A stretch of 34,422 nt of DNA, taken from assembly GCA_038210945.1 (NCBI GenBank), contig JBBQWD010000001.1:1-34422 (forward strand). The letters run 5' to 3'. The stretch is from Gemmatimonadales bacterium (GTDB lineage Bacteria; Gemmatimonadota; Gemmatimonadetes; Gemmatimonadales; Gemmatimonadaceae). Position 1 is the first letter of the stretch. Every line of letters begins with the position of its first letter. Below the pieces are notes generated by a model that saw only the letters and a list, made by a program, of their open reading frames with translations, did not search any database and had not been told where the DNA came from. Below are positions 7,350 to 28,259 of the stretch, piece by piece. A program made the position numbers and the translations under genes.

Positions 7350-7988
7350 ATGAAGCGCGCCGCTGCCGCTGCTGCTGCCAAGGCAAAGCAGGCTGTAATC
7401 CTCATTCGCCGAATCCTGACTGTCGCAGTCGTGACGGCATTTGCGCTCTGGCTCCTCTCCGCCACTGCGGTACTCGTCTGGAGCTCTCGGGATGAGGCTC
7501 GGCCCGCCCAAGCGATCGTCGTACTTGGCGCCGCTCAATACGCGGGTAAGCCCTCTCCTGTCCTTCGGGCCCGGCTCGATCATGCCTTGGAGCTCTGGAA
7601 CCGACACCTCGCGTCACTCCTGATACTGACAGGGGGGACGGGTTCCGGCGACACGACCAGTGAAGCAGCTGTTGGAAGGACCTACGCGCGGAAACACGGC
7701 GTTCCCGACAGCGCCATTCTCGTCGAAACCGAAGGTCGAACGACGAGTGAATCAATGAGAGCCGTTGCGGGTATGCTCGAGGTGCGCGGACTTCAGACCG
7801 CCCTTCTCGTCAGCGACCCGTTCCATATGCTGAGGCTGCGGATTCTGGCGAGACGCTTCGGTTTTACACCGTACACATCTCCGACCCAGACCAGCCCAAT
7901 CTCGCCCAATCGGGAAGAGCGCTGGAAGTATATTTTCAGCGAATCCATCAAGGCACCACTCGCCTTCTTTTTCGAGAGGAAGCTGTGA
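7350..7988 (+). CDS. YdcF/DUF218 (SanA/ElyC-like) membrane-anchored protein
   Basis: N-terminal TM helix, AIVVLGAA, RLDHA, LTGG, SEA, E...TT.E and VSDPFHMLR. Confidence 0.9.
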   Translation: MKRAAAAAAAKAKQAVILIRRILTVAVVTAFALWLLSATAVLVWSSRDEARPAQAIVVLGAAQYAGKPSPVLRARLDHALELWNRHLASLLILTGGTGSGDTTSEAAVGRTYARKHGVPDSAILVETEGRTTSESMRAVAGMLEVRGLQTALLVSDPFHMLRLRILARRFGFTPYTSPTQTSPISPNREERWKYIFSESIKAPLAFFFERKL

Positions 7989-9367
7989 AGACCAAGCATT
8001 TAGTTGCCCTGTGCTACTTAATGGGGAGCGTCCTGGCCGTCGCTCCACTCGGCGCGCAGGCCACACCCAAAATCAAGTTCGAGAAGTACACGCTTCCGAA
8101 CGGTCTCGAGGTGATCCTGCATGAGGATCATTCGACGCCAATCGTTTCCGTGGACACCTGGTACCACGTGGGATCGGGCGACGAACAGATAGGCCGCACC
8201 GGGTTCGCGCACCTGTTCGAGCACATCATGTTCATGGGCTCGCAAAACGTGCCGGTGGGGGCATTCGACCAGATGCTCGAAGCAGCTGGGGCCGACAACA
8301 ACGGATCGACCAATGAAGACCGAACCAACTACTACGAGAATCTTCCTTCCAACGCTCTGGCGCTTGCCCTATGGCTCGACGCCGACCGGATGGGCTTTCT
8401 GCTGCCGACGATGGACTTGGCCAAGCTGAATCTGCAGCGTGATGTCGTAAAGAATGAGCGCCGGCAGCGGGTGGACAACGTCCCGTACGGGCGCGCCGAC
8501 GAGACCATATTGGCGGCGTTGTACCCTCCATCCCACCCGTACTCCTGGCCGGTCATCGGCTCGATGGCGGATCTAAGCGCTGCCTCGGTCGACGATGTGA
8601 AAAACTTTTTCCGGACCTACTACGCTCCCAACAACGCGACGGTAGCCATAGCGGGCGATTTCGATCCCGTGGCCGTCAAGAAACTCGTCGCTCAGTACTT
8701 CGGACCGATTCCTCGCGGTCCAGCGGTGAAAAGGAGAACGACGGTTCCCGCCGTAATTCTTCCCCGCGACAAATTCATCGTGCTGGAAGACAAGGTGCAG
8801 CTACCGCGGCTCTTCTACACATGGCCGACGGTAAAGCTGTACGCGCCGGATGATGCCACGCTTGACATCCTGGCGCTGGTCCTCGCCAACGACAAGAACT
8901 CCCGGCTGTACAAGAAGCTCGTGTACGAGCTTCAGATTGCCCAGAACGCGCGCGCGTTTCAGGAAAGCGGGCGGCTCGATGGCAAGTTCCAGGTCGACGT
9001 CACACCGATGCCCGGACAAAAGGTCACCGACATCGATCAGGTCGTCCGGACGGAGATCACCAACATCATCGATAAGGGCATCTCGACCCGGGAGCTGCAA
9101 CGGGCTCAAAACTCGTACAAGGCAAGCTTTCTCGACCGTTTGGCCAGCGTGTTGGGCAAGGCGGACCAACTCAACACCTATAACTATTTCGCCGGCAATC
9201 CGGACTACGTTCAACAGGATGCTGCAAGGTATGAGCGTGTGACTGCCGCTGACGTTCAGCGCGTCGCCAGGAAATACCTTGGCAAGCCGAAGATCGTGCT
9301 CACGGTAGTCCCAGAGGGCAAGAAAGACATGATGCTGACCGCAGCCGCAGCCGGAGGCGCTCGATGA
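7985..9367 (+). CDS. M16B peptidase, catalytic subunit, exported
   Basis: Sec-type signal peptide (..LAVAPLGA|Q), GFAHLFEHIMF (HxxEH), NGST..DRTNY and VVKNERRQR. Confidence 0.93.
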   Translation: MKTKHLVALCYLMGSVLAVAPLGAQATPKIKFEKYTLPNGLEVILHEDHSTPIVSVDTWYHVGSGDEQIGRTGFAHLFEHIMFMGSQNVPVGAFDQMLEAAGADNNGSTNEDRTNYYENLPSNALALALWLDADRMGFLLPTMDLAKLNLQRDVVKNERRQRVDNVPYGRADETILAALYPPSHPYSWPVIGSMADLSAASVDDVKNFFRTYYAPNNATVAIAGDFDPVAVKKLVAQYFGPIPRGPAVKRRTTVPAVILPRDKFIVLEDKVQLPRLFYTWPTVKLYAPDDATLDILALVLANDKNSRLYKKLVYELQIAQNARAFQESGRLDGKFQVDVTPMPGQKVTDIDQVVRTEITNIIDKGISTRELQRAQNSYKASFLDRLASVLGKADQLNTYNYFAGNPDYVQQDAARYERVTAADVQRVARKYLGKPKIVLTVVPEGKKDMMLTAAAAGGAR

Positions 9368-10809
9368 GAGTATTCCATTCCAGTGGCGCGTTGGGCGTGC
9401 TCGCTTTAACCGTCATTCAGTCGACTGCCTTCGCTCAAGGCACGTTTGATCGCACCAAGCCACCCGAACTGGGTCCTCCGCCTCGTGTAGCGCTTCCGCC
9501 GATTGTAACTCGCGAGCTCCCGAACGGCCTCAAGCTGATGATCGTCGAGCAGCACGAGCTGCCTCTTGCCGACTTCGTCCTGCTCGTCGGAAGTGGGAGC
9601 ACCACTGACCCCACCAGCAAGACAGGCGTAGCAAATCTCACGTCCGCGATGCTCCGTGAAGGAACCGCAACGCGAAAGAGCCTCGAGATCGCGGATCAGA
9701 TTGCATTCCTCGGCATCAATCTGTCCCCGTCCAGCAGCTGGGAGTCGAGCACTCTGTCGCTCCACACTCCTACGGCTCAACTGGATAGCGCACTGGCGCT
9801 CTTCGCGGATGTCGCACTCCACCCATCCTTTCCGGCGAACGAATTCGAGCGGATCAGGAAGAGCCGGCTTACGGATCTCATTCGGTTGAAGGACCAAGGC
9901 CCCGCGATCGCCAATCTCGCGTTCCCGGCAATCATTTATGGGAGCGGACACCCGTACGGCGCTGCAACACTCGGAACGGAAACGTCGGTCAAATCGCTCT
10001 CCGTGACCGACCTCCAGAACTATTACCAGGCGAACTTCAAGCCGAACAACGCTACTCTGATCATCGTCGGGGACGTGAGCCCGAGTCAGATCGAACAGAA
10101 GATCAACGCAGTGTTCGGCGGTTGGCAGCGTGGCGATGTATCGCCGCTCACATATGCAGATCCACCGAAAGCCGGCACGACCACGATCTATCTCATCGAC
10201 AAGCCTGGGGCCGCTCAATCATCGTTTCGGATTGGTGCTGTAGGCGTCCCGCGCTCGACTAAAGACTACTTTGCTCTGTCTGTGATGAACACGATTCTTG
10301 GCGGGTCATTTTCCAGCCGACTCAATCAGAATCTTCGTGAGACCCGGGGCTATACCTATGGCGCAAGCACGCGGTTCGATATGAGGCGTGCTGCCGGCCC
10401 GTTCTCGGCATCGGCAGAAATAGTCGCGGCGAAAACAGATTCAGCACTGCTGGAGTTCATGAAGGAGTTGAACGCCATCCGGCAGACAGTACCTCCGACC
10501 GAGCTGTCTCGCGCCAAGCGATTCCTGCAGCTACAGCTCCCAGGGAATTTTGAGACCACGCAGGACATTGCGTTCCAGCTGGTTCCGGTCGCGCTTTACA
10601 GGCTGCCGTTGGACTACTACAACAACTACGTCCAGAACATCGAGGCTGTCACTCAAGCCGATGTCGCACGAGTCGCGCAGCAATATATCAATCCCGGCTC
10701 TTTGGCTGTCGTGATCGTGGGCGACAGAAAGAGCATTGAGCCAGGACTCAAGGCCATCAATGTCGCTCCTATCGTCATCAGAGACATGAGCGGCCAGCCG
10801 ATCCCTTAG
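9364..10809 (+). CDS. M16B peptidase, non-catalytic partner subunit, exported
   Basis: Signal peptide (..TAFA|Q) and M16 fold without HxxEH. Carries LGGSFSSRLNQNLRETRGYTYGA (R/Y substrate pair). ATGA overlap with the upstream gene. Confidence 0.9.
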   Translation: MRVFHSSGALGVLALTVIQSTAFAQGTFDRTKPPELGPPPRVALPPIVTRELPNGLKLMIVEQHELPLADFVLLVGSGSTTDPTSKTGVANLTSAMLREGTATRKSLEIADQIAFLGINLSPSSSWESSTLSLHTPTAQLDSALALFADVALHPSFPANEFERIRKSRLTDLIRLKDQGPAIANLAFPAIIYGSGHPYGAATLGTETSVKSLSVTDLQNYYQANFKPNNATLIIVGDVSPSQIEQKINAVFGGWQRGDVSPLTYADPPKAGTTTIYLIDKPGAAQSSFRIGAVGVPRSTKDYFALSVMNTILGGSFSSRLNQNLRETRGYTYGASTRFDMRRAAGPFSASAEIVAAKTDSALLEFMKELNAIRQTVPPTELSRAKRFLQLQLPGNFETTQDIAFQLVPVALYRLPLDYYNNYVQNIEAVTQADVARVAQQYINPGSLAVVIVGDRKSIEPGLKAINVAPIVIRDMSGQPIP

Positions 10810-11676: not shown

Positions 11677-11729
11677 GCGAGCACGTCGAGGGGGTTCCAG
11701 TGGGTTTGCATGGCGGGCAATTTACGACA

Positions 11730-13040
11730 ATGCGAATTCCAATAGAAACCTTCCACCTGGAAAACGGGCTTTTCGTCACACTGTCCGAGGATCACACTGC
11801 GCCGATCGTCGCGGTGAATCTCTGGTATCACGTCGGATCGGCGAACGAGAAACCCGGCAGGACCGGATTCGCACATCTGTTCGAGCACATGCTCTTCCAG
11901 GGTTCGGCGCACGTCGGATCGAACGAACACTTCGAGCTGATCCAACGAGCGGGCGGAACCCTGAACGGATCAACCTGGCTCGAGCGGACGAACTACTTCG
12001 AGACTATTCCGTCAAACGAGCTCGCGCTGGCACTGTGGCTGGAAGCCGATCGCATGGGTGAGCTGCTCCCAGCCATGACTCAGGAGAAGCTGGACACGCA
12101 ACGCGATGTCGTAAAGAACGAACGACGGTGGTCCGTCGACAATCAGCCGTACGGGACGATGCTGGAAAAGATGCAGGAGCTGGTCTTCCCGCCATCCCAC
12201 CCATTTCAGCATTCGCTGATCGGATCGATGGATGACCTGACGGCGGCATCACTCGATGATGTCGCGCAGTTTTTCTCCACGTACTACAGGCCGGATAACG
12301 CGGTTCTTTCGATAGCCGGAGATTTCGATCCTGCGGATGCGCGACGGTTGATTTCCGAATACTTCGGGCCGATTCCAAGAGGGAAAGGAAAGCCTCCGCT
12401 GGCGCCAATGAATCTTCCGCCGGTGTTCGGAAAACGATTACGCGAAGTCGTCCACGATGACGTGAGTCTTCCCCGACTGTTCACGGTCTTTCGCTCCCCT
12501 GTTTTTGGAAGCGAGAACTATTATGCCGCGAGCGTGGCATCGGCGGTTCTCGGGCTCAGAAAGGGAAGCCGGCTGCACCGGTCCCTGGTACGGGAGCGAC
12601 AAATTGCAGCAGATGCATCCGCCTTCACTTTCGATCTGGCAAAGGGGACCGACCTATTAGTGATCGATGTGACCGCACGGCCGGAAACCGGAGTCTCGCA
12701 GCTCGAAGAGGAGGTCGAGCGGGAGATCGACGTCCTCTATCGCGCAGGAGTAACCGAGTCCGAGGTGGGGAGAGCGATCGCCCTCATCGAAACCGATCTG
12801 GTAGCCTCACTGCAGTCTGCGGGCGAACGCGCCGACAGGCTCTCGATGTTCGCCACCTACTTCGCTCGGCCAGAACTCATCAACGAGCAGGTAGATCGAT
12901 ACCGGACGGTGACCGCGAAGCGGGTCAACGACCTCATTTCCGAGCGATTCGGTCAGGACAACCGCGCAAGCCTGCTCTACGTTCCGAAAGAGGGTGTCGA
13001 GTCTGATGGTGTTCTGGCGGCTGCGGCAAGCACAGGCTGA
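11730..13040 (+). CDS. M16B peptidase, catalytic subunit, cytoplasmic
   Basis: WYHVGS, GFAHLFEHMLF and VVKNERR. No signal peptide; the protein starts MRIPIETFHLENGL. Confidence 0.93.
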   Translation: MRIPIETFHLENGLFVTLSEDHTAPIVAVNLWYHVGSANEKPGRTGFAHLFEHMLFQGSAHVGSNEHFELIQRAGGTLNGSTWLERTNYFETIPSNELALALWLEADRMGELLPAMTQEKLDTQRDVVKNERRWSVDNQPYGTMLEKMQELVFPPSHPFQHSLIGSMDDLTAASLDDVAQFFSTYYRPDNAVLSIAGDFDPADARRLISEYFGPIPRGKGKPPLAPMNLPPVFGKRLREVVHDDVSLPRLFTVFRSPVFGSENYYAASVASAVLGLRKGSRLHRSLVRERQIAADASAFTFDLAKGTDLLVIDVTARPETGVSQLEEEVEREIDVLYRAGVTESEVGRAIALIETDLVASLQSAGERADRLSMFATYFARPELINEQVDRYRTVTAKRVNDLISERFGQDNRASLLYVPKEGVESDGVLAAAASTG

Positions 13041-14389
13041 TGGTCACCTCTCTCCGCCCGAAATCAGGACCGGCACGGCGATATCATTTCCCGGACTTTC
13101 ACGACGCGGTGTTGCCGAGCGGAATTCGCTTAGTAACGGCTCCGGTGAAAAAACTTCCGCTGGCCACGGTGCTGGTAGTCGTAGATGCCGGGTCTGTGAG
13201 CGAACCCCGAGGCAAAGAGGGAATCGCATCGCTTGCAGCGGCAGGACTCCTTGAAGGTACCAACCGATTCGACGGGGCCGAGCTGGCGGAGAAGTTCGAG
13301 CAGCTTGGTACTTCCCTGGAATCGGGGGCAGACTGGGATAGCGCGGTCATCAAGTTCACCACCTTGTCCGACCAGTTGGAAGAGGCAACGCGGTTGCTCG
13401 GCGAGGTGATCAGCAGTCCCGTCTTTCCGGAGCGGGAAGTTGAGCGCCTCAAGGCCGAGCGACTGGCGGAAATCCTCCAGTTGGAGACCGAGCCCCGCGG
13501 ATTGGCGGACGAGAAATTCTCAGAGTTTCTCTATTCGCCCGAATCCCGGTACTCCAGGCCAGACGAGGGAAGCACGGAGAGCGTCAATGCCCTCTCACGT
13601 GAAGATGTCGAGCAGTTCTATGGATCGAATTATCGAGCAGGAACTACGACCGTTATCATTGCGGGAGATGTCACACCAGAACGAACGCGTGCCTTGGTCA
13701 CGGATGCTTTCCGAAACTGGCCCTCGGGATCGGCTCAAGAGCCACAGCTTACGACAGCCGCACGGACCAAGGGACGACACGTTCACATTGTGCACAAGCC
13801 GGAAGCGCCGCAATCGGAGCTTCGGGTAGGACACGTCGGATTGCCGCGCAGGCATCCCGATTTTTTCCCGACGATGGTAATGAACGCGGTGCTTGGCGGC
13901 CTTTTCGGCTCGCGGATCAATCTCAATCTCCGCGAAGTCCACGGTTACACCTATGGCGCGTCATCCTACTACGACTGGCGGCGCGGAGCAGGTCCATTCG
14001 TCGTATCGACGGCCGTAGAGAGCGAAGTCACCTCACCGGCACTCACGGAAATTCTTCTCGAGATCGACCGAATTCGTAGCGACAGGATCTCTGACGAAGA
14101 GCTGTCTCTTGCTCGTGACTATCTCGAGGGAGTCTTCCCGATTCGCTACGAGACTACAGCGGCAATAGCCTCAGCTCTGGCGACGCTTGTGATCCATGAC
14201 CTACCGCCAGACTACTACGATACCTATCGCAAGAACATCCACAGCGTGTCGGCCGACGCGGTGCTTGAGGCAGCGATCGCTCATCTCCATCCGAGCGAGC
14301 TGCAAACGGTCATAGTCGGTGACGCAAAAATGATTCAGGGCGCTCTCGCCGATTCGAAATTCGGCGAGCTGGTCGTTCATAACGGATAG
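13040..14389 (+). CDS. M16B peptidase, non-catalytic partner subunit, cytoplasmic
   Basis: No HxxEH. Carries LGGLFGSRINLNLREVHGYTYGA. TGATG overlap with the upstream gene. Confidence 0.9.
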   Translation: MVTSLRPKSGPARRYHFPDFHDAVLPSGIRLVTAPVKKLPLATVLVVVDAGSVSEPRGKEGIASLAAAGLLEGTNRFDGAELAEKFEQLGTSLESGADWDSAVIKFTTLSDQLEEATRLLGEVISSPVFPEREVERLKAERLAEILQLETEPRGLADEKFSEFLYSPESRYSRPDEGSTESVNALSREDVEQFYGSNYRAGTTTVIIAGDVTPERTRALVTDAFRNWPSGSAQEPQLTTAARTKGRHVHIVHKPEAPQSELRVGHVGLPRRHPDFFPTMVMNAVLGGLFGSRINLNLREVHGYTYGASSYYDWRRGAGPFVVSTAVESEVTSPALTEILLEIDRIRSDRISDEELSLARDYLEGVFPIRYETTAAIASALATLVIHDLPPDYYDTYRKNIHSVSADAVLEAAIAHLHPSELQTVIVGDAKMIQGALADSKFGELVVHNG

Positions 14390-25142: not shown

Positions 25143-25223
25143 TAGCGATGCGGATCCAAGTCGCGCTCAGGGAGAACTTCGCTGCGGATTGATCCGCGCC
25201 AGTCATCTGTGCATCGTTCGAGG

Positions 25224-25628
25224 ATGCCAAGACCAGAGCTCCTCGAGACATTCGACAACCCTTACGCCGATCGCGACTACGAGATCCACATGGATTGCTC
25301 GGAGTTCACGTCGCTATGCCCAGTCGGCGGGATCGAGAGCGATGCCGAAGAGCTCAAGCTCCTGGAGGGCGGCGCCCCCGATTTCGGCACGATTCGCATC
25401 ACCTATGTTCCGGCGAAGAAGTGCATCGAGCTGAAGAGCCTCAAGCTCTATCTGTGGAGCTACAGGAACGATGGGATCTTCTACGAGCGCGCGGTGAACC
25501 GGGTACTGGACGATCTGGTCGCGAGCTCGAAGCCGAAGTGGATGCGAGTGGTGGGCGACTTCAACGTTCGCGGCGGCGTCAAGTCGGTGATCACCGCAAC
25601 TCACGGTAAGGCGCCGGCGGCGAAGTAG
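25224..25628 (+). CDS. queF: NADPH-dependent 7-cyano-7-deazaguanine reductase QueF (unimodular) with loop insertion
   Basis: LETFDNP, EFTSLCP, PDFGT, QueF motif ELKSLKLYL and FNVRGG. Confidence 0.9.
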   Translation: MPRPELLETFDNPYADRDYEIHMDCSEFTSLCPVGGIESDAEELKLLEGGAPDFGTIRITYVPAKKCIELKSLKLYLWSYRNDGIFYERAVNRVLDDLVASSKPKWMRVVGDFNVRGGVKSVITATHGKAPAAK

Positions 25629-25698
25629 TTCGACGCACCCGTTGATAACGAGCAACGAGAAGTTTTAATTGTTCACTCCGGGCGTCGAAGTCCGGTGC

Positions 25699-25771
<73 letters not shown>

Positions 25772-25824: not shown

Positions 25825-26733
25825 TCACCTCGGAGGAAGCTGCCAGATCTCGACCAGATTCCGGTCGACGAAGGGCACGGCGACGCGATTTCGCTTCGTG
25901 TCGACAGCGATATCGGCCGGTGCGCCCCCGGTGCGAATGATTGGCCGGCCAGTTCCTCCAGTGAAAAGATGCAGGCTCGAGTCTTTCTGACTCGCCACGA
26001 GCACGCGGTCTCCGGGAAGAACTTCGACCCCGTCGAACATCGCGCCTCCGCTCCTGCCGATTTCGCTGAGCGTCTTGCTCCCAGCAGCCCAGGCTTTGAT
26101 CGCCGACTCACCGCCATATGGGACGACAATGAAGCGGCGGTTGTTTGCGTCCCACGTAATGCCGTTGGGCCCGCCGAGCGCCGGGTCCTCCAGTGCGAGA
26201 GACACCCGCCCTCCGGCTATCCGGTAAATGCGGTTCGTTCCCGTATCCGTTATGTACAGCCCATCGGGGCCGGCTGCGATATCGTTGAGGAAGCCGAGTT
26301 TGAAGGCGGAGAAATCGACAGTCGCGAGCGGCGCACCCGTGCGACGATTGAACGCGCGCACCGCATCGGCGTCCACTACCCACAACATATCGCCCACGAT
26401 CGTCATCCCCCGCGGCGCATGCAGCGTCGCCCCGCCTGCGCCACCCGCGATGAACCGGAGCCGCTCGACCGTGCCATCCGGGGTCATGCGGGAGATGAAG
26501 CCGTTGTTGTCCTTAGCGCCGGGGTCACCATTCCCCCAGCTGTTCACGAAGTACACATCCTGGTCCGGATCGTAGCGTACGGCTTCGGGCTGGATAAAGC
26601 CCCCGGGCGACGCAATCAACGCCGAATCGGATTTCGCAACGGCGAGACTATCCGGTGTGGTCTCAGCCGGTTTGGAGTTTGAGCAGGCGGCGAGAACAGC
26701 GGCACCAATGATGGCAGCGAGAGTCGAGCGCAT
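25825..26733 (-). CDS. SMP-30/gluconolactonase-like beta-propeller lipoprotein
   Basis: GAGGTG RBS, lipobox LAAC, and PEAV, FLNDIA, GPNGI, FDGV and PADI propeller motifs. Confidence 0.85.
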   Translation of the reverse strand: MRSTLAAIIGAAVLAACSNSKPAETTPDSLAVAKSDSALIASPGGFIQPEAVRYDPDQDVYFVNSWGNGDPGAKDNNGFISRMTPDGTVERLRFIAGGAGGATLHAPRGMTIVGDMLWVVDADAVRAFNRRTGAPLATVDFSAFKLGFLNDIAAGPDGLYITDTGTNRIYRIAGGRVSLALEDPALGGPNGITWDANNRRFIVVPYGGESAIKAWAAGSKTLSEIGRSGGAMFDGVEVLPGDRVLVASQKDSSLHLFTGGTGRPIIRTGGAPADIAVDTKRNRVAVPFVDRNLVEIWQLPPR

Positions 26734-26796
26734 GGTTTCACCTCGATGAAATCGGAAACAACGCCGGATGTGACAAAGACGATTCTGCAAATTGTC

Positions 26797-26825
26797 TTGA
26801 CATCTGGATAGTGGTGGAATACTCT
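26797..26825 (+). promoter_or_regulatory. sigma70 promoter for the porin leader
   Basis: TTGACA-N17-TACTCT. Confidence 0.75.
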
Positions 26826-26885
26826 TGCCCGCGTTCGGGATAGTTCGTGTCGTCCGTAACCACTAGCTCGGTCATAAGCCCAGTC

Positions 26886-26978
26886 ATGCTTTCTGCTCGC
26901 CGCGTCTCTCTTTCCAATCCTGGAAATAATCGCCCGCTCCCACAGATGCTGTGGGGCGTGATCGAATGTTCCGGGTAG
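26886..26978 (+). CDS. Putative leader peptide (30 aa)
   Basis: MLSARRVSLSNPGNNRPLPQMLWGVIECSG*, located between the promoter and the terminator. No clear SD sequence. Confidence 0.4.
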   Translation: MLSARRVSLSNPGNNRPLPQMLWGVIECSG

Positions 26979-27011
26979 AGCCGCCAAGCCAGCACTACAG
27001 CTCATTTCAAT

Positions 27012-27054
27012 GCCCTCGCGTTTCGATCGATGAACGCGGGGGCTTTTTGTTTTT
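27012..27054 (+). terminator. Intrinsic terminator within the 5' leader (attenuator)
   Basis: GCCCTCGCGTT/AACGCGGGGGC 11-bp stem plus TTTTTGTTTTT, 47 nt upstream of the porin ATG and on the same strand. Confidence 0.85.
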
Positions 27055-27101
27055 CGCAACGGATTTCGCCGTACGTATCACTCACTTCAAAGGAGGCCGA
27101 G

Positions 27102-28259
27102 ATGCTTCATCGAATATCCGCAGCCGCTCGCGTGTCTGTCCCGCCGTCGAGGGCCGGTCCGTCGCGCAGGATCCGTTTCGGCGGGGCAATGCTTGCGCTG
27201 TCCTTTGCTACGACCGCCGGCAGCCAGGAGGTGAAATGGTTCGACGAGATCGCGGTAAACGCGTTTGTCTCCACGGCCTACGTGTACAACGGCAATCGTC
27301 CGGCGACCGGTACCAGCAGCTATCGCGTCTTCGATTTCATCGACAACTCCTTCAACCTCGACGTCGCTGAACTGGTCGTGCAGATAGCACCTTCCAAGCC
27401 GAACGACGCCGGTTTTCGTGTAGACCTGGCTGTCGGCAACTCGATCCCGCAGGTCACGAAGTCGCAAGACCAGACCGTCGCCCAGTTCGACCTGCAACAG
27501 CTGTTCGTAAGCTACATCGCCCCCGTTGGCTCCGGGCTGCGCTTCGATTTCGGGAAGTACGTCACGCACCTCGGTTACGAGGTGATCGAAGGGTACGACG
27601 GCTACAACGACAACTACAGCCGGTCGATCCTCTTCGGCTACGCCATTCCATTCACGCACACCGGCGTCAAGGCGAGCTACGCTTTCTCGAGCAAGGTGGC
27701 CGCGATGGTCGAAGTGGTGAACGGGTGGGATCTCGTCCGCGACAACAATCACTCCAAGTCCGTCGGTGCACAGCTAAGTCTGACGCCTGTCGCTTCGCTC
27801 ACCGTACTGCTCAACTGGATCGGCGGGGCCGAGATCGCGAACGACAATCACACGAATCGCAACGTGTTCGACGTCGTGGCCATCCTCAAGCCGACCAAGA
27901 CGCTGACGCTCGGCGTAAACGGGGACTACGGGATCGAGAACGGTACGAGCACCGTGAATCCCGGGTCCGACGGGACATGGAAGGGGATCGCCGGCTACGC
28001 GACGCTCGCCGTGACGAGCAAATTCTCCGTTGCGCTACGGGGCGAGACGTTTCACGACGAGGAAGGTGTGCGCCTCGGAACGGGTACCAGGGCTACGCTG
28101 TCGGAGGTGACCTTCACGCCGGCGTACAAGTTCACCGATCACGTTCTGTTACGGTGTGACCTGCGCTACGACACGGCGAACCAACCGATCCTTGCCAAGC
28201 GCGCTACGCTTGCCGACAAGCAAGCGACCATAGGCGCTAACGTAATCTTCGTTTATTGA
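27102..28259 (+). CDS. Outer-membrane beta-barrel porin (BBP2/DUF1597-like)
   Basis: AGGAGG RBS, signal peptide, FDFGKYVTHLGYEVIE, NYSRSILF..PFTHTG, NGWD, ALRGETFHD and a C-terminal aromatic beta-signal (VIFVY). Confidence 0.88.
   Translation: MLHRISAAARVSVPPSRAGPSRRIRFGGAMLALSFATTAGSQEVKWFDEIAVNAFVSTAYVYNGNRPATGTSSYRVFDFIDNSFNLDVAELVVQIAPSKPNDAGFRVDLAVGNSIPQVTKSQDQTVAQFDLQQLFVSYIAPVGSGLRFDFGKYVTHLGYEVIEGYDGYNDNYSRSILFGYAIPFTHTGVKASYAFSSKVAAMVEVVNGWDLVRDNNHSKSVGAQLSLTPVASLTVLLNWIGGAEIANDNHTNRNVFDVVAILKPTKTLTLGVNGDYGIENGTSTVNPGSDGTWKGIAGYATLAVTSKFSVALRGETFHDEEGVRLGTGTRATLSEVTFTPAYKFTDHVLLRCDLRYDTANQPILAKRATLADKQATIGANVIFVY

Follow-up and report, generated by a model that had tools for sequence, protein, structure and literature searches.

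A leader region ahead of a BBP2-family gene

The 34,422-nucleotide stretch of Gemmatimonadales DNA analyzed here (the window) encodes a 385-aa outer-membrane beta-barrel protein of the BBP2 family (27102–28259, + strand; PF07642, E 4e-76), and the DNA ahead of this gene raises the question of whether its transcription is attenuated and, if so, in response to which signal. An initial annotation, made from the sequence letters of the window, had proposed a leader-peptide attenuator or riboswitch controlling a BBP2-type porin, and the assignment of the porin family was upheld. The leader elements described below lie on the + strand. The putative sigma70-type promoter (26797–26825) was found as annotated, with TTGACA at 26797–26802, a 17-nt spacer, TACTCT at 26820–26825 and a predicted start site near 26832. 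Positions A2 and T6 of the -10 hexamer are kept in 97% of 128 homologous promoters, with the hexamer taken 17 nt after the -35 element, which served as anchor; the spacer is variable, and a simple promoter scanner called no promoters at the leader. A divergent gene lies upstream of the porin leader.

The predicted transcript contains a leader ORF of 30 codons (26886–26978, MLSARRVSLSNPGNNRPLPQMLWGVIECSG), defined by its in-frame start and by homologue comparison, which has no Shine-Dalgarno (SD)-like sequence ahead of it and whose stop codon lies at 26976–26978. Asn conservation and parsimony mark Asn11-x-x-Asn14-Asn15 (26916–26930) as its putative control codons. Folding and pairing analyses place a 1:2 hairpin, the presumed anti-antiterminator, at 26929–26962, with a 5' arm that starts inside the last Asn codon. 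Segment 2, the 5' strand of the predicted antiterminator, spans 26960–26977 and ends within the leader stop codon (pairing and duplex energy), and segment 3, which comprises the terminator's left arm and its loop and would also provide the 3' strand of the antiterminator, spans 27011–27028 (pairing and folding). The intrinsic terminator itself (27012–27054) consists of the 3:4 hairpin, with its stem at 27012–27043, and a U tract extending to 27054; it is followed by the porin ribosome-binding site, AAGGAGG, read from the sequence at 27090–27096, and by the porin gene, the presumed regulated gene.

The initial annotation had recognized no known riboswitch in this region, and Rfam searches agree: the sole match in the whole window was a tRNA, the leader returned nothing meaningful at E-values up to 10 (best E 0.95, unrelated families), and five homologous loci gave no relevant match at gathering or loose thresholds. 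NCBIfam provided no name for the porin and none for the leader peptide. Contigs from two metatranscriptome sets, shallow in depth and derived in part from other strains, covered the porin gene in part and left 26730–27038 uncovered.

Gene context and distribution of the leader

Leader copies were pooled from a DNA search of relatives, a porin search, a metagenome pattern scan that gave 99 loci and a search of genus genomes with a covariance model. After removal of contained duplicates there were 133 distinct copies, and those derived from genomes all came from one Gemmatimonadaceae genus; the copies are close kin, and counts of them are not counts of independent events. Eleven of the 133 end too soon for a downstream gene to be called. 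In all 122 classifiable copies the first downstream gene is amtB (64), glnK (32), the porin gene (23) or glnA (3), and no other type of gene was found in this position. Since 107 of these 122 copies were supplied by leader-only searches, the nitrogen context is no artefact of the porin-based search. The leader thus does precede the porin gene, as had been proposed, but it is not porin-specific, being located also ahead of amtB, glnK and glnA. The source genome itself harbors a second copy, ahead of amtB-glnK (G000:C82:3949-4203; L009:1502-1755), its leader ORF being shortened by a 6-nt deletion that preserves the frame.

Relatives of the porin are mostly labelled as Gemmatimonadaceae or Gemmatimonadales, and 19 of the 51 homologous porin loci carry the leader. 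Among the 32 loci with no detected leader, 22 have glnK, amtB or glnA beside the porin gene, and by its gene neighborhood the BBP2 porin is likely part of a nitrogen-uptake set. One of the three glnA cases (L026) is a glnA remnant of about 30 codons between the leader and glnK, within the first 130 nt past the terminator, which suggests that deletions have shortened an ancestral operon of the order leader-glnA-glnK-amtB-porin.

By eye, a palindrome like TGTGCA-N5-TGCACA also sits just upstream of the -35 element in many glnK/amtB promoters, both those that carry the attenuator and those that lack it (for instance L011, L025, L236, L237, L252 and L256; a half-site is present at 26787–26790 of the window). 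A looser form of this palindrome occurs in 34 of 128 leader promoters, and it may be a candidate site for a nitrogen regulator.

Within the genus, the leader is patchy. At an E-value of 10−2 (0.01) the covariance model matched 38 of 109 genus genomes, 35 of them strongly; weak matches (E above 1e-5) fell mostly on the terminator part and were dropped, using a score cut of 25. The amtB gene is present in 34 of the 35 genomes with a strong leader match, versus 66 of the 109 genus genomes overall, and in the lone strong-match genome with no amtB call the gene is cut by a contig end (the genus tallies, here as in the 63-genome and gltB counts below, include the unpublished genomes G285, G286 and G287, on which nothing else stated here depends). 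Conversely, the leader was found at five of the 28 best-scoring genus amtB loci examined, 30 having been returned, of which two from unpublished genomes were left out. Most genus amtB genes without the leader (L294-L299, L304, L305, L308, L310, L311, L313-L319) display a TATAAT-like -10 element a few bases ahead of the start codon and apparently give leaderless mRNAs. Outside the genus, the leader was not found in the genomes searched: the covariance model yielded only one weak match (E 0.005) in 147 genomes from other genera of the family and none in 145 genomes of an order sample, the pattern search yielded three one-mismatch matches versus three control matches in 394 genomes from other genera of the phylum, and none of 28 amtB loci from other genera combined an Asn-containing upstream ORF (uORF) with a terminator.

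Conservation of the reading frame and of its asparagine codons

The 30-codon uORF of the initial annotation is present at 26886–26978, and a start codon in frame was found in every one of the 128 copies for which promoter context is available. Between the promoter and the paired Asn codons (NN), 139 ATGs lie in frame versus 16 out of frame, and the start-to-NN distance is 10–14 codons; the promoter-to-start and NN-to-terminator distances, by comparison, occupy all three phases (64/31/26 and 62/32/27). For the majority of copies, the stop codon lies 51 nt past NN. An SD-like motif precedes the uORF in one of 125 copies, and the 5' UTR ranges from about 1 to 58 nt. Near-leaderless uORFs, with the ATG about 1–4 nt past the predicted start site, were observed in L006, L102, L138, L157, L200 and L212.

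Among the 44 copies that were not chosen by an NN-containing search pattern, the three positions of N-x-x-N-N are occupied by Asn in 43, 43 and 44 copies, encoded by AAC in 4, 6 and 10. Parsimony on a tree of 125 copies, whose NN counts include pattern-selected rows, assigns 2, 1 and 0 amino-acid changes to these codons versus 10, 6 and 12 third-position changes. Codons before and between the Asn codons underwent 16–36 amino-acid changes each, with 18 and 16 for the intervening Pro and Gly. At the Pro in position +3, 13 amino-acid changes accompany a fixed third position, and the P-L-P-Q codons show almost no third-position change on the tree, meaning that these codons are held as RNA, in the form of stem nucleotides. 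At the last Asn codon, 21 of 88 sequences tolerate a change from AAT to AAC that disrupts a stem pair, and hence Asn is conserved there at the codon level; one of the three conserved Asn codons lies outside any supported helix. The Asn cluster is modest, at three to four codons. Leader peptides contain 3.9 Asn each, versus 2.7% Asn in 11 window proteins. Arg follows NN in 128 of 132 copies, with synonymous use of CGC, CGT and CGA, and an S-A-R-R-like head is kept. Judged from these substitution patterns, the leader ORF is under coding selection acting on its Asn codons, and Asn alone is conserved as an amino acid.

This outcome divides the stall motif that had been put forward, N-P-G-N-N-R-P-L-P: its three Asn codons are conserved, but its Pro and Gly vary and P-L-P is frozen as stem nucleotides. 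The accompanying mgtL-like reading is not supported, with 18 amino-acid changes counted for the Pro in position -2, and proline sensing was rejected because Pro codons vary as amino acids outside the stems. Sensing through Gln codons was likewise rejected, a single Gln codon, lying within the stem, being present in 109 of 127 leaders.

Conservation and folding of the leader helices

Pairing was assessed in a structure alignment of 88 sequences, corresponding to the full-length copies after thinning at 95.5% identity; the shuffle controls ignore relatedness, and the search pattern fixed parts of segments 1 and 2 in many rows. The terminator, which the initial annotation had described as strong, has a fold z-score of -4.94 (0 of 200 shuffles as good) and is 94.5% paired across the 88 sequences, with double changes between G-C and A-U at one pair in 21 of them. 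The 1:2 hairpin has a z-score of -2.72 (3 of 200 shuffles as good) and 96.2% of its cells are paired. Taken jointly, 1:2 and 3:4 are 95.4% paired, a value reached by none of 500 shuffles, and present 26 double-sided changes. The antiterminator helix, 26960–26977:27011–27028, is 95.7% paired (3 of 500 shuffles as high) and has a duplex energy of -17.1 kcal/mol; the 2:3 form alone is unremarkable relative to shuffles (z -1.26), and its double-sided changes number only three, a figure that 31 of 500 shuffles reach. In this alignment, covariation supports 1:2 and 3:4 strongly and 2:3 more weakly. The 1:2 / 2:3 / 3:4 layout of a ribosome-coupled attenuator, as first drawn, is therefore supported by the aligned helices and by the folds, and the homologues conserve the frame, the Asn codons and the 1:2 and 3:4 hairpins.

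Two of the pairings originally assigned within this layout fared differently. The alternative pairing GGGGCGT:ATGCCCT can form in the window copy, where two private substitutions allow it to appear in the fold with a ribosome at the last Asn, but it was rejected as the conserved antiterminator: it is 73.4% paired, against the 95.7% of 26960–26977:27011–27028, 404 of 500 shuffles score as high, and one G-C pair of this register holds in just 18 of the 88 sequences. Both stems of the long hairpin traced over the 3' half of the uORF are present, but the outer one, CCTGGAA:TTCCGGG, is 81% paired (181 of 500 shuffles as high) without covariation support and may form in some copies.

Constrained folds of nascent RNA, that is, of the RNA before arm 4 of the terminator is complete, were computed for 121 copies. 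The 2:3 helix formed in 118 of them with a ribosome at the first Asn codon, in 109 with a ribosome at the last, in 45 with no ribosome and in none with a ribosome at the stop codon. In full-length equilibrium folds with a stalled ribosome the terminator is still present in 95–96 of the 121 copies. Since the terminator wins at equilibrium, antitermination must be kinetic, with 2:3 forming first. The conservation of the terminator loop may be explained by its pairing with segment 2.

Two divergent copies, L034 and L041, have a rebuilt 1:2 hairpin with its register moved by one codon. L041 also has a frameshift past NN, with a stop codon still close, and, by eye, a compensatory GGCUA:UGGCC antiterminator pair.

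A probable asparagine-codon attenuator and its alternatives

Sequence comparison thus brings together a promoter, an in-frame ORF in which N-x-x-N-N is conserved as amino acids, three helices that exclude one another and a purely nitrogen-related gene context. On these grounds the leader is very probably a conserved ribosome-coupled attenuator, and there is a good probability that Asn-tRNA is its input. The full model, in which glutamine limitation depletes Asn-tRNA and an Asn-codon attenuator thereby switches on genes for nitrogen uptake and assimilation, so that Asn-tRNA acts as a nitrogen proxy, appears reasonably likely. According to this model, when nitrogen is plentiful the ribosome would reach the stop codon at 26976–26978 and cover segment 2, and the terminator would form. 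When glutamine is low, Asn-tRNA would fall, because its amide nitrogen comes from glutamine via GatCAB or AsnB. With Asn-tRNA in short supply, the ribosome would wait at Asn11, Asn14 or Asn15, masking the base of segment 1; segment 2 would then pair with segment 3 ahead of the synthesis of segment 4, allowing RNA polymerase to read through.

Stalling might instead be set by a nascent-peptide arrest motif that senses a small molecule, such as 2-oxoglutarate or glutamine, in the manner of TnaC or SpeFL, and not by scarcity of Asn-tRNA. The retained S-A-R-R-like head, the Arg after NN (128 of 132) and the presence of only three to four Asn codons would suit an arrest peptide. We consider it unlikely, however, since residues that precede the Asn codons or lie between them are free to vary (16–36 amino-acid changes per codon), the start-to-NN length varies between 10 and 14 codons, and extra Asn residues recur next to the cluster (of 132 copies, 15 have one at -4 and 12 have one at -2), as expected for codon-count sensing. 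It is also conceivable, if distinctly unlikely, that the attenuator senses the general speed or initiation of translation, as in slow growth or the stringent response, or just dampens expression, with Asn being incidental. A uORF that lacks an SD, 5' UTRs of about 1 to 58 nt and a 2:3 helix in 45 of 121 nascent folds without a ribosome are compatible with such a device; the holding of three codons as Asn with synonymous variation only, one of them outside the supported helices, and the fact that every classifiable target is a nitrogen gene are not what it predicts.

The ORF could also be a by-product, with the terminator controlled by a metabolite-binding riboswitch such as a new glutamine aptamer. 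Nucleotides 26925–26978 are highly conserved, and other bacteria regulate nitrogen genes through glutamine riboswitches (PMC9971707). Yet the conserved positions are accounted for by the three helices plus the codons, Rfam gave no match and simple hairpins alone are supported, and the combination of frame-preserving indels and third-position variation implies a translated ORF, which leaves a riboswitch very unlikely. Binding of the leader by an ANTAR-type protein antiterminator like GnfR is extremely unlikely; the target motif of ANTAR proteins is a twin hexaloop hairpin, and this explanation would leave the conserved ORF unaccounted for. It has a precedent in the GnfR-mediated antitermination of glnK/amtB in Geobacter (PMC2995071). 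In a search of uncertain sensitivity, an ANTAR domain scored over the cut-off in none of five genomes and in none of 14 control genomes.

Nitrogen physiology of the leader-bearing genomes

For an attenuator that reads Asn codons, the routes by which Asn-tRNA can be made would be of direct relevance. The gatB gene was identified in five of five genomes, GlnRS scored over the cut-off in none of four genus genomes, and AsnA was absent in four of four and five of five genomes examined. A full AsnB is missing in three of five leader-bearing genomes, one of them 98% complete. Of 63 genus genomes, 41 have AsnB homologues, and those of one genome (G002) lie, by eye, among apparent surface-polysaccharide genes. 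AsnRS was present in all 10 genomes tested; given this enzyme and the AsnB homologues, uptake of Asn could break the link between the signal and glutamine. The AspRS of the genus has Leu at the position of interest in its anticodon-domain motif, where many non-discriminating AspRS have His and some have Leu. Neither GlnD nor an NtrC over the cut-off was found in the five leader-bearing genomes, in which many other sigma54 activators are present. The tRNA-Asn has a U1-A72 pair, which GatCAB requires, in five of five genomes; according to PMC4206432, this pair is a necessary but not sufficient feature, and bacteria with AsnRS and GatCAB but without an Asn synthetase can make Asn on tRNA.

Asparagine codons in gltB leaders

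Where upstream DNA was readable, a terminator-like hairpin was detected ahead of gltB in 15 of 21 genus loci and in 10 of 25 other loci. In genus g6, seven of eight gltB loci have a leader ORF that ends 45–46 nt before the terminator and contains one to three Asn codons within an N-L-N-x-V-R-like stretch. Leaders combining Asn codons with a terminator were located ahead of gltB in genus g6 (L334-L337, L343, L347, L349) and in the genus of the porin leader (L324, L354, L355, L357, L361, L362, L364). The gltB leaders gave no match over the length of the leader covariance model and would therefore be separate families; they are possibly independent Asn attenuator families, for which we regard them as candidates.

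These leaders would fit into a Gemmatimonadales nitrogen regulon that dispenses with GlnD and NtrC and uses the ribosome as sensor, with Asn-tRNA, made from glutamine through GatCAB, being read by attenuators at amtB, glnK, glnA and the porin gene and by the unrelated gltB leaders. Such a regulon would amount to a new and repeatedly evolved route of nitrogen control, a proposal that could equally well prove right or wrong.

Relation to known regulatory systems

Known bacterial nitrogen control involves GlnD/PII/NtrBC, GlnR/TnrA, NtcA, NrpR, glutamine riboswitches and ANTAR proteins. The proline-codon leaders mgtL and mgtP of Salmonella are a case in which an aa-tRNA-dependent leader links a transporter gene to a wider physiological state, and in this respect the leader described here is similar; unlike in mgtL/mgtP, Pro is not conserved here as an amino acid outside the stems, and termination is intrinsic. 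A comparative survey of attenuators (Lopatovskaya et al. 2010) reportedly may mention asparagine genes, which could lower the novelty of the present leader.

The closest likeness is to the classical attenuators, represented by trpL, hisL, leuL, thrL and pheL and by the ilvB uORF of Corynebacterium (PMC10272879, PMC11109978). In common with them, the leader described here has a short ORF whose control codons form a cluster at the 5' edge of segment 1 and whose stop codon closes segment 2, the helices 1:2, 2:3 and 3:4, and an intrinsic terminator that precedes the first gene. The present leader differs from them in that its control codons are Asn, no SD precedes the uORF and the targets, genes for ammonium transport, PII, glutamine synthetase and a porin, do not encode enzymes making the sensed amino acid, so that the aa-tRNA would be a proxy for nitrogen status; amtB, glnK, glnA and the porin gene supply the amide nitrogen of Asn only indirectly. 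Because its targets do not make the sensed amino acid, we count the leader as a variant of classical attenuation.

Among RNA-level controls of nitrogen genes, the glutamine-I (glnA) and glutamine-II (downstream-peptide) riboswitches (PMC9971707) similarly respond to glutamine status; the leader here, in contrast, has no Rfam match, and its sensor is apparently the translation of Asn codons, with no aptamer. The GnfK/GnfR system of Geobacter sulfurreducens, which acts on nifH and glnK-amtB, also features a premature intrinsic terminator before glnK/amtB, relieved under nitrogen limitation (PMC2995071), but it needs a two-component ANTAR protein, whereas here the leader ORF is conserved and ANTAR domains over the cut-off were found in none of five genomes (controls, none of 14). 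The motifs reported in the 5' UTRs of SAR11 amt/amtB genes (PMC3870248) are likewise cis-RNAs before amtB in cells without GlnD/NtrBC; they are described there as riboswitch-like, and it is by this description, together with the lack of an Rfam match here, that the two are set apart. In a full-text search, mostly outside subscription papers, neither an Asn-codon attenuator nor this motif was found in print, although the supplement of PMC11109978 may list similar motifs.

If the Asn-codon model is true, translation of the codons of one amino acid would serve as a global nutrient sensor for a whole nitrogen-uptake set, and leader-peptide attenuation would gain a new amino acid and reach a phylum that has been little studied, here represented mainly by metagenome-assembled genomes. 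The BBP2 porins of this clade would gain a testable role in nitrogen uptake. The 150-nt element is directly testable in E. coli or in cell-free reporters, and the attenuator could serve as a compact glutamine/Asn biosensor.

Other features of the window

Upstream of the leader locus, the window contains a QueF-like short gene (25209–25771) followed by a tRNA-Phe, and the porin operon of another genome (G124) lies, by eye, near a similar rhomboid/tRNA region. Four genes for M16 (insulinase-family) peptidases form two tandem pairs, at 7985–10809 and 11700–14389 of the window. Elsewhere in the source genome, ARAGORN called a tRNA-Sec (G000:C46:1891-1989).
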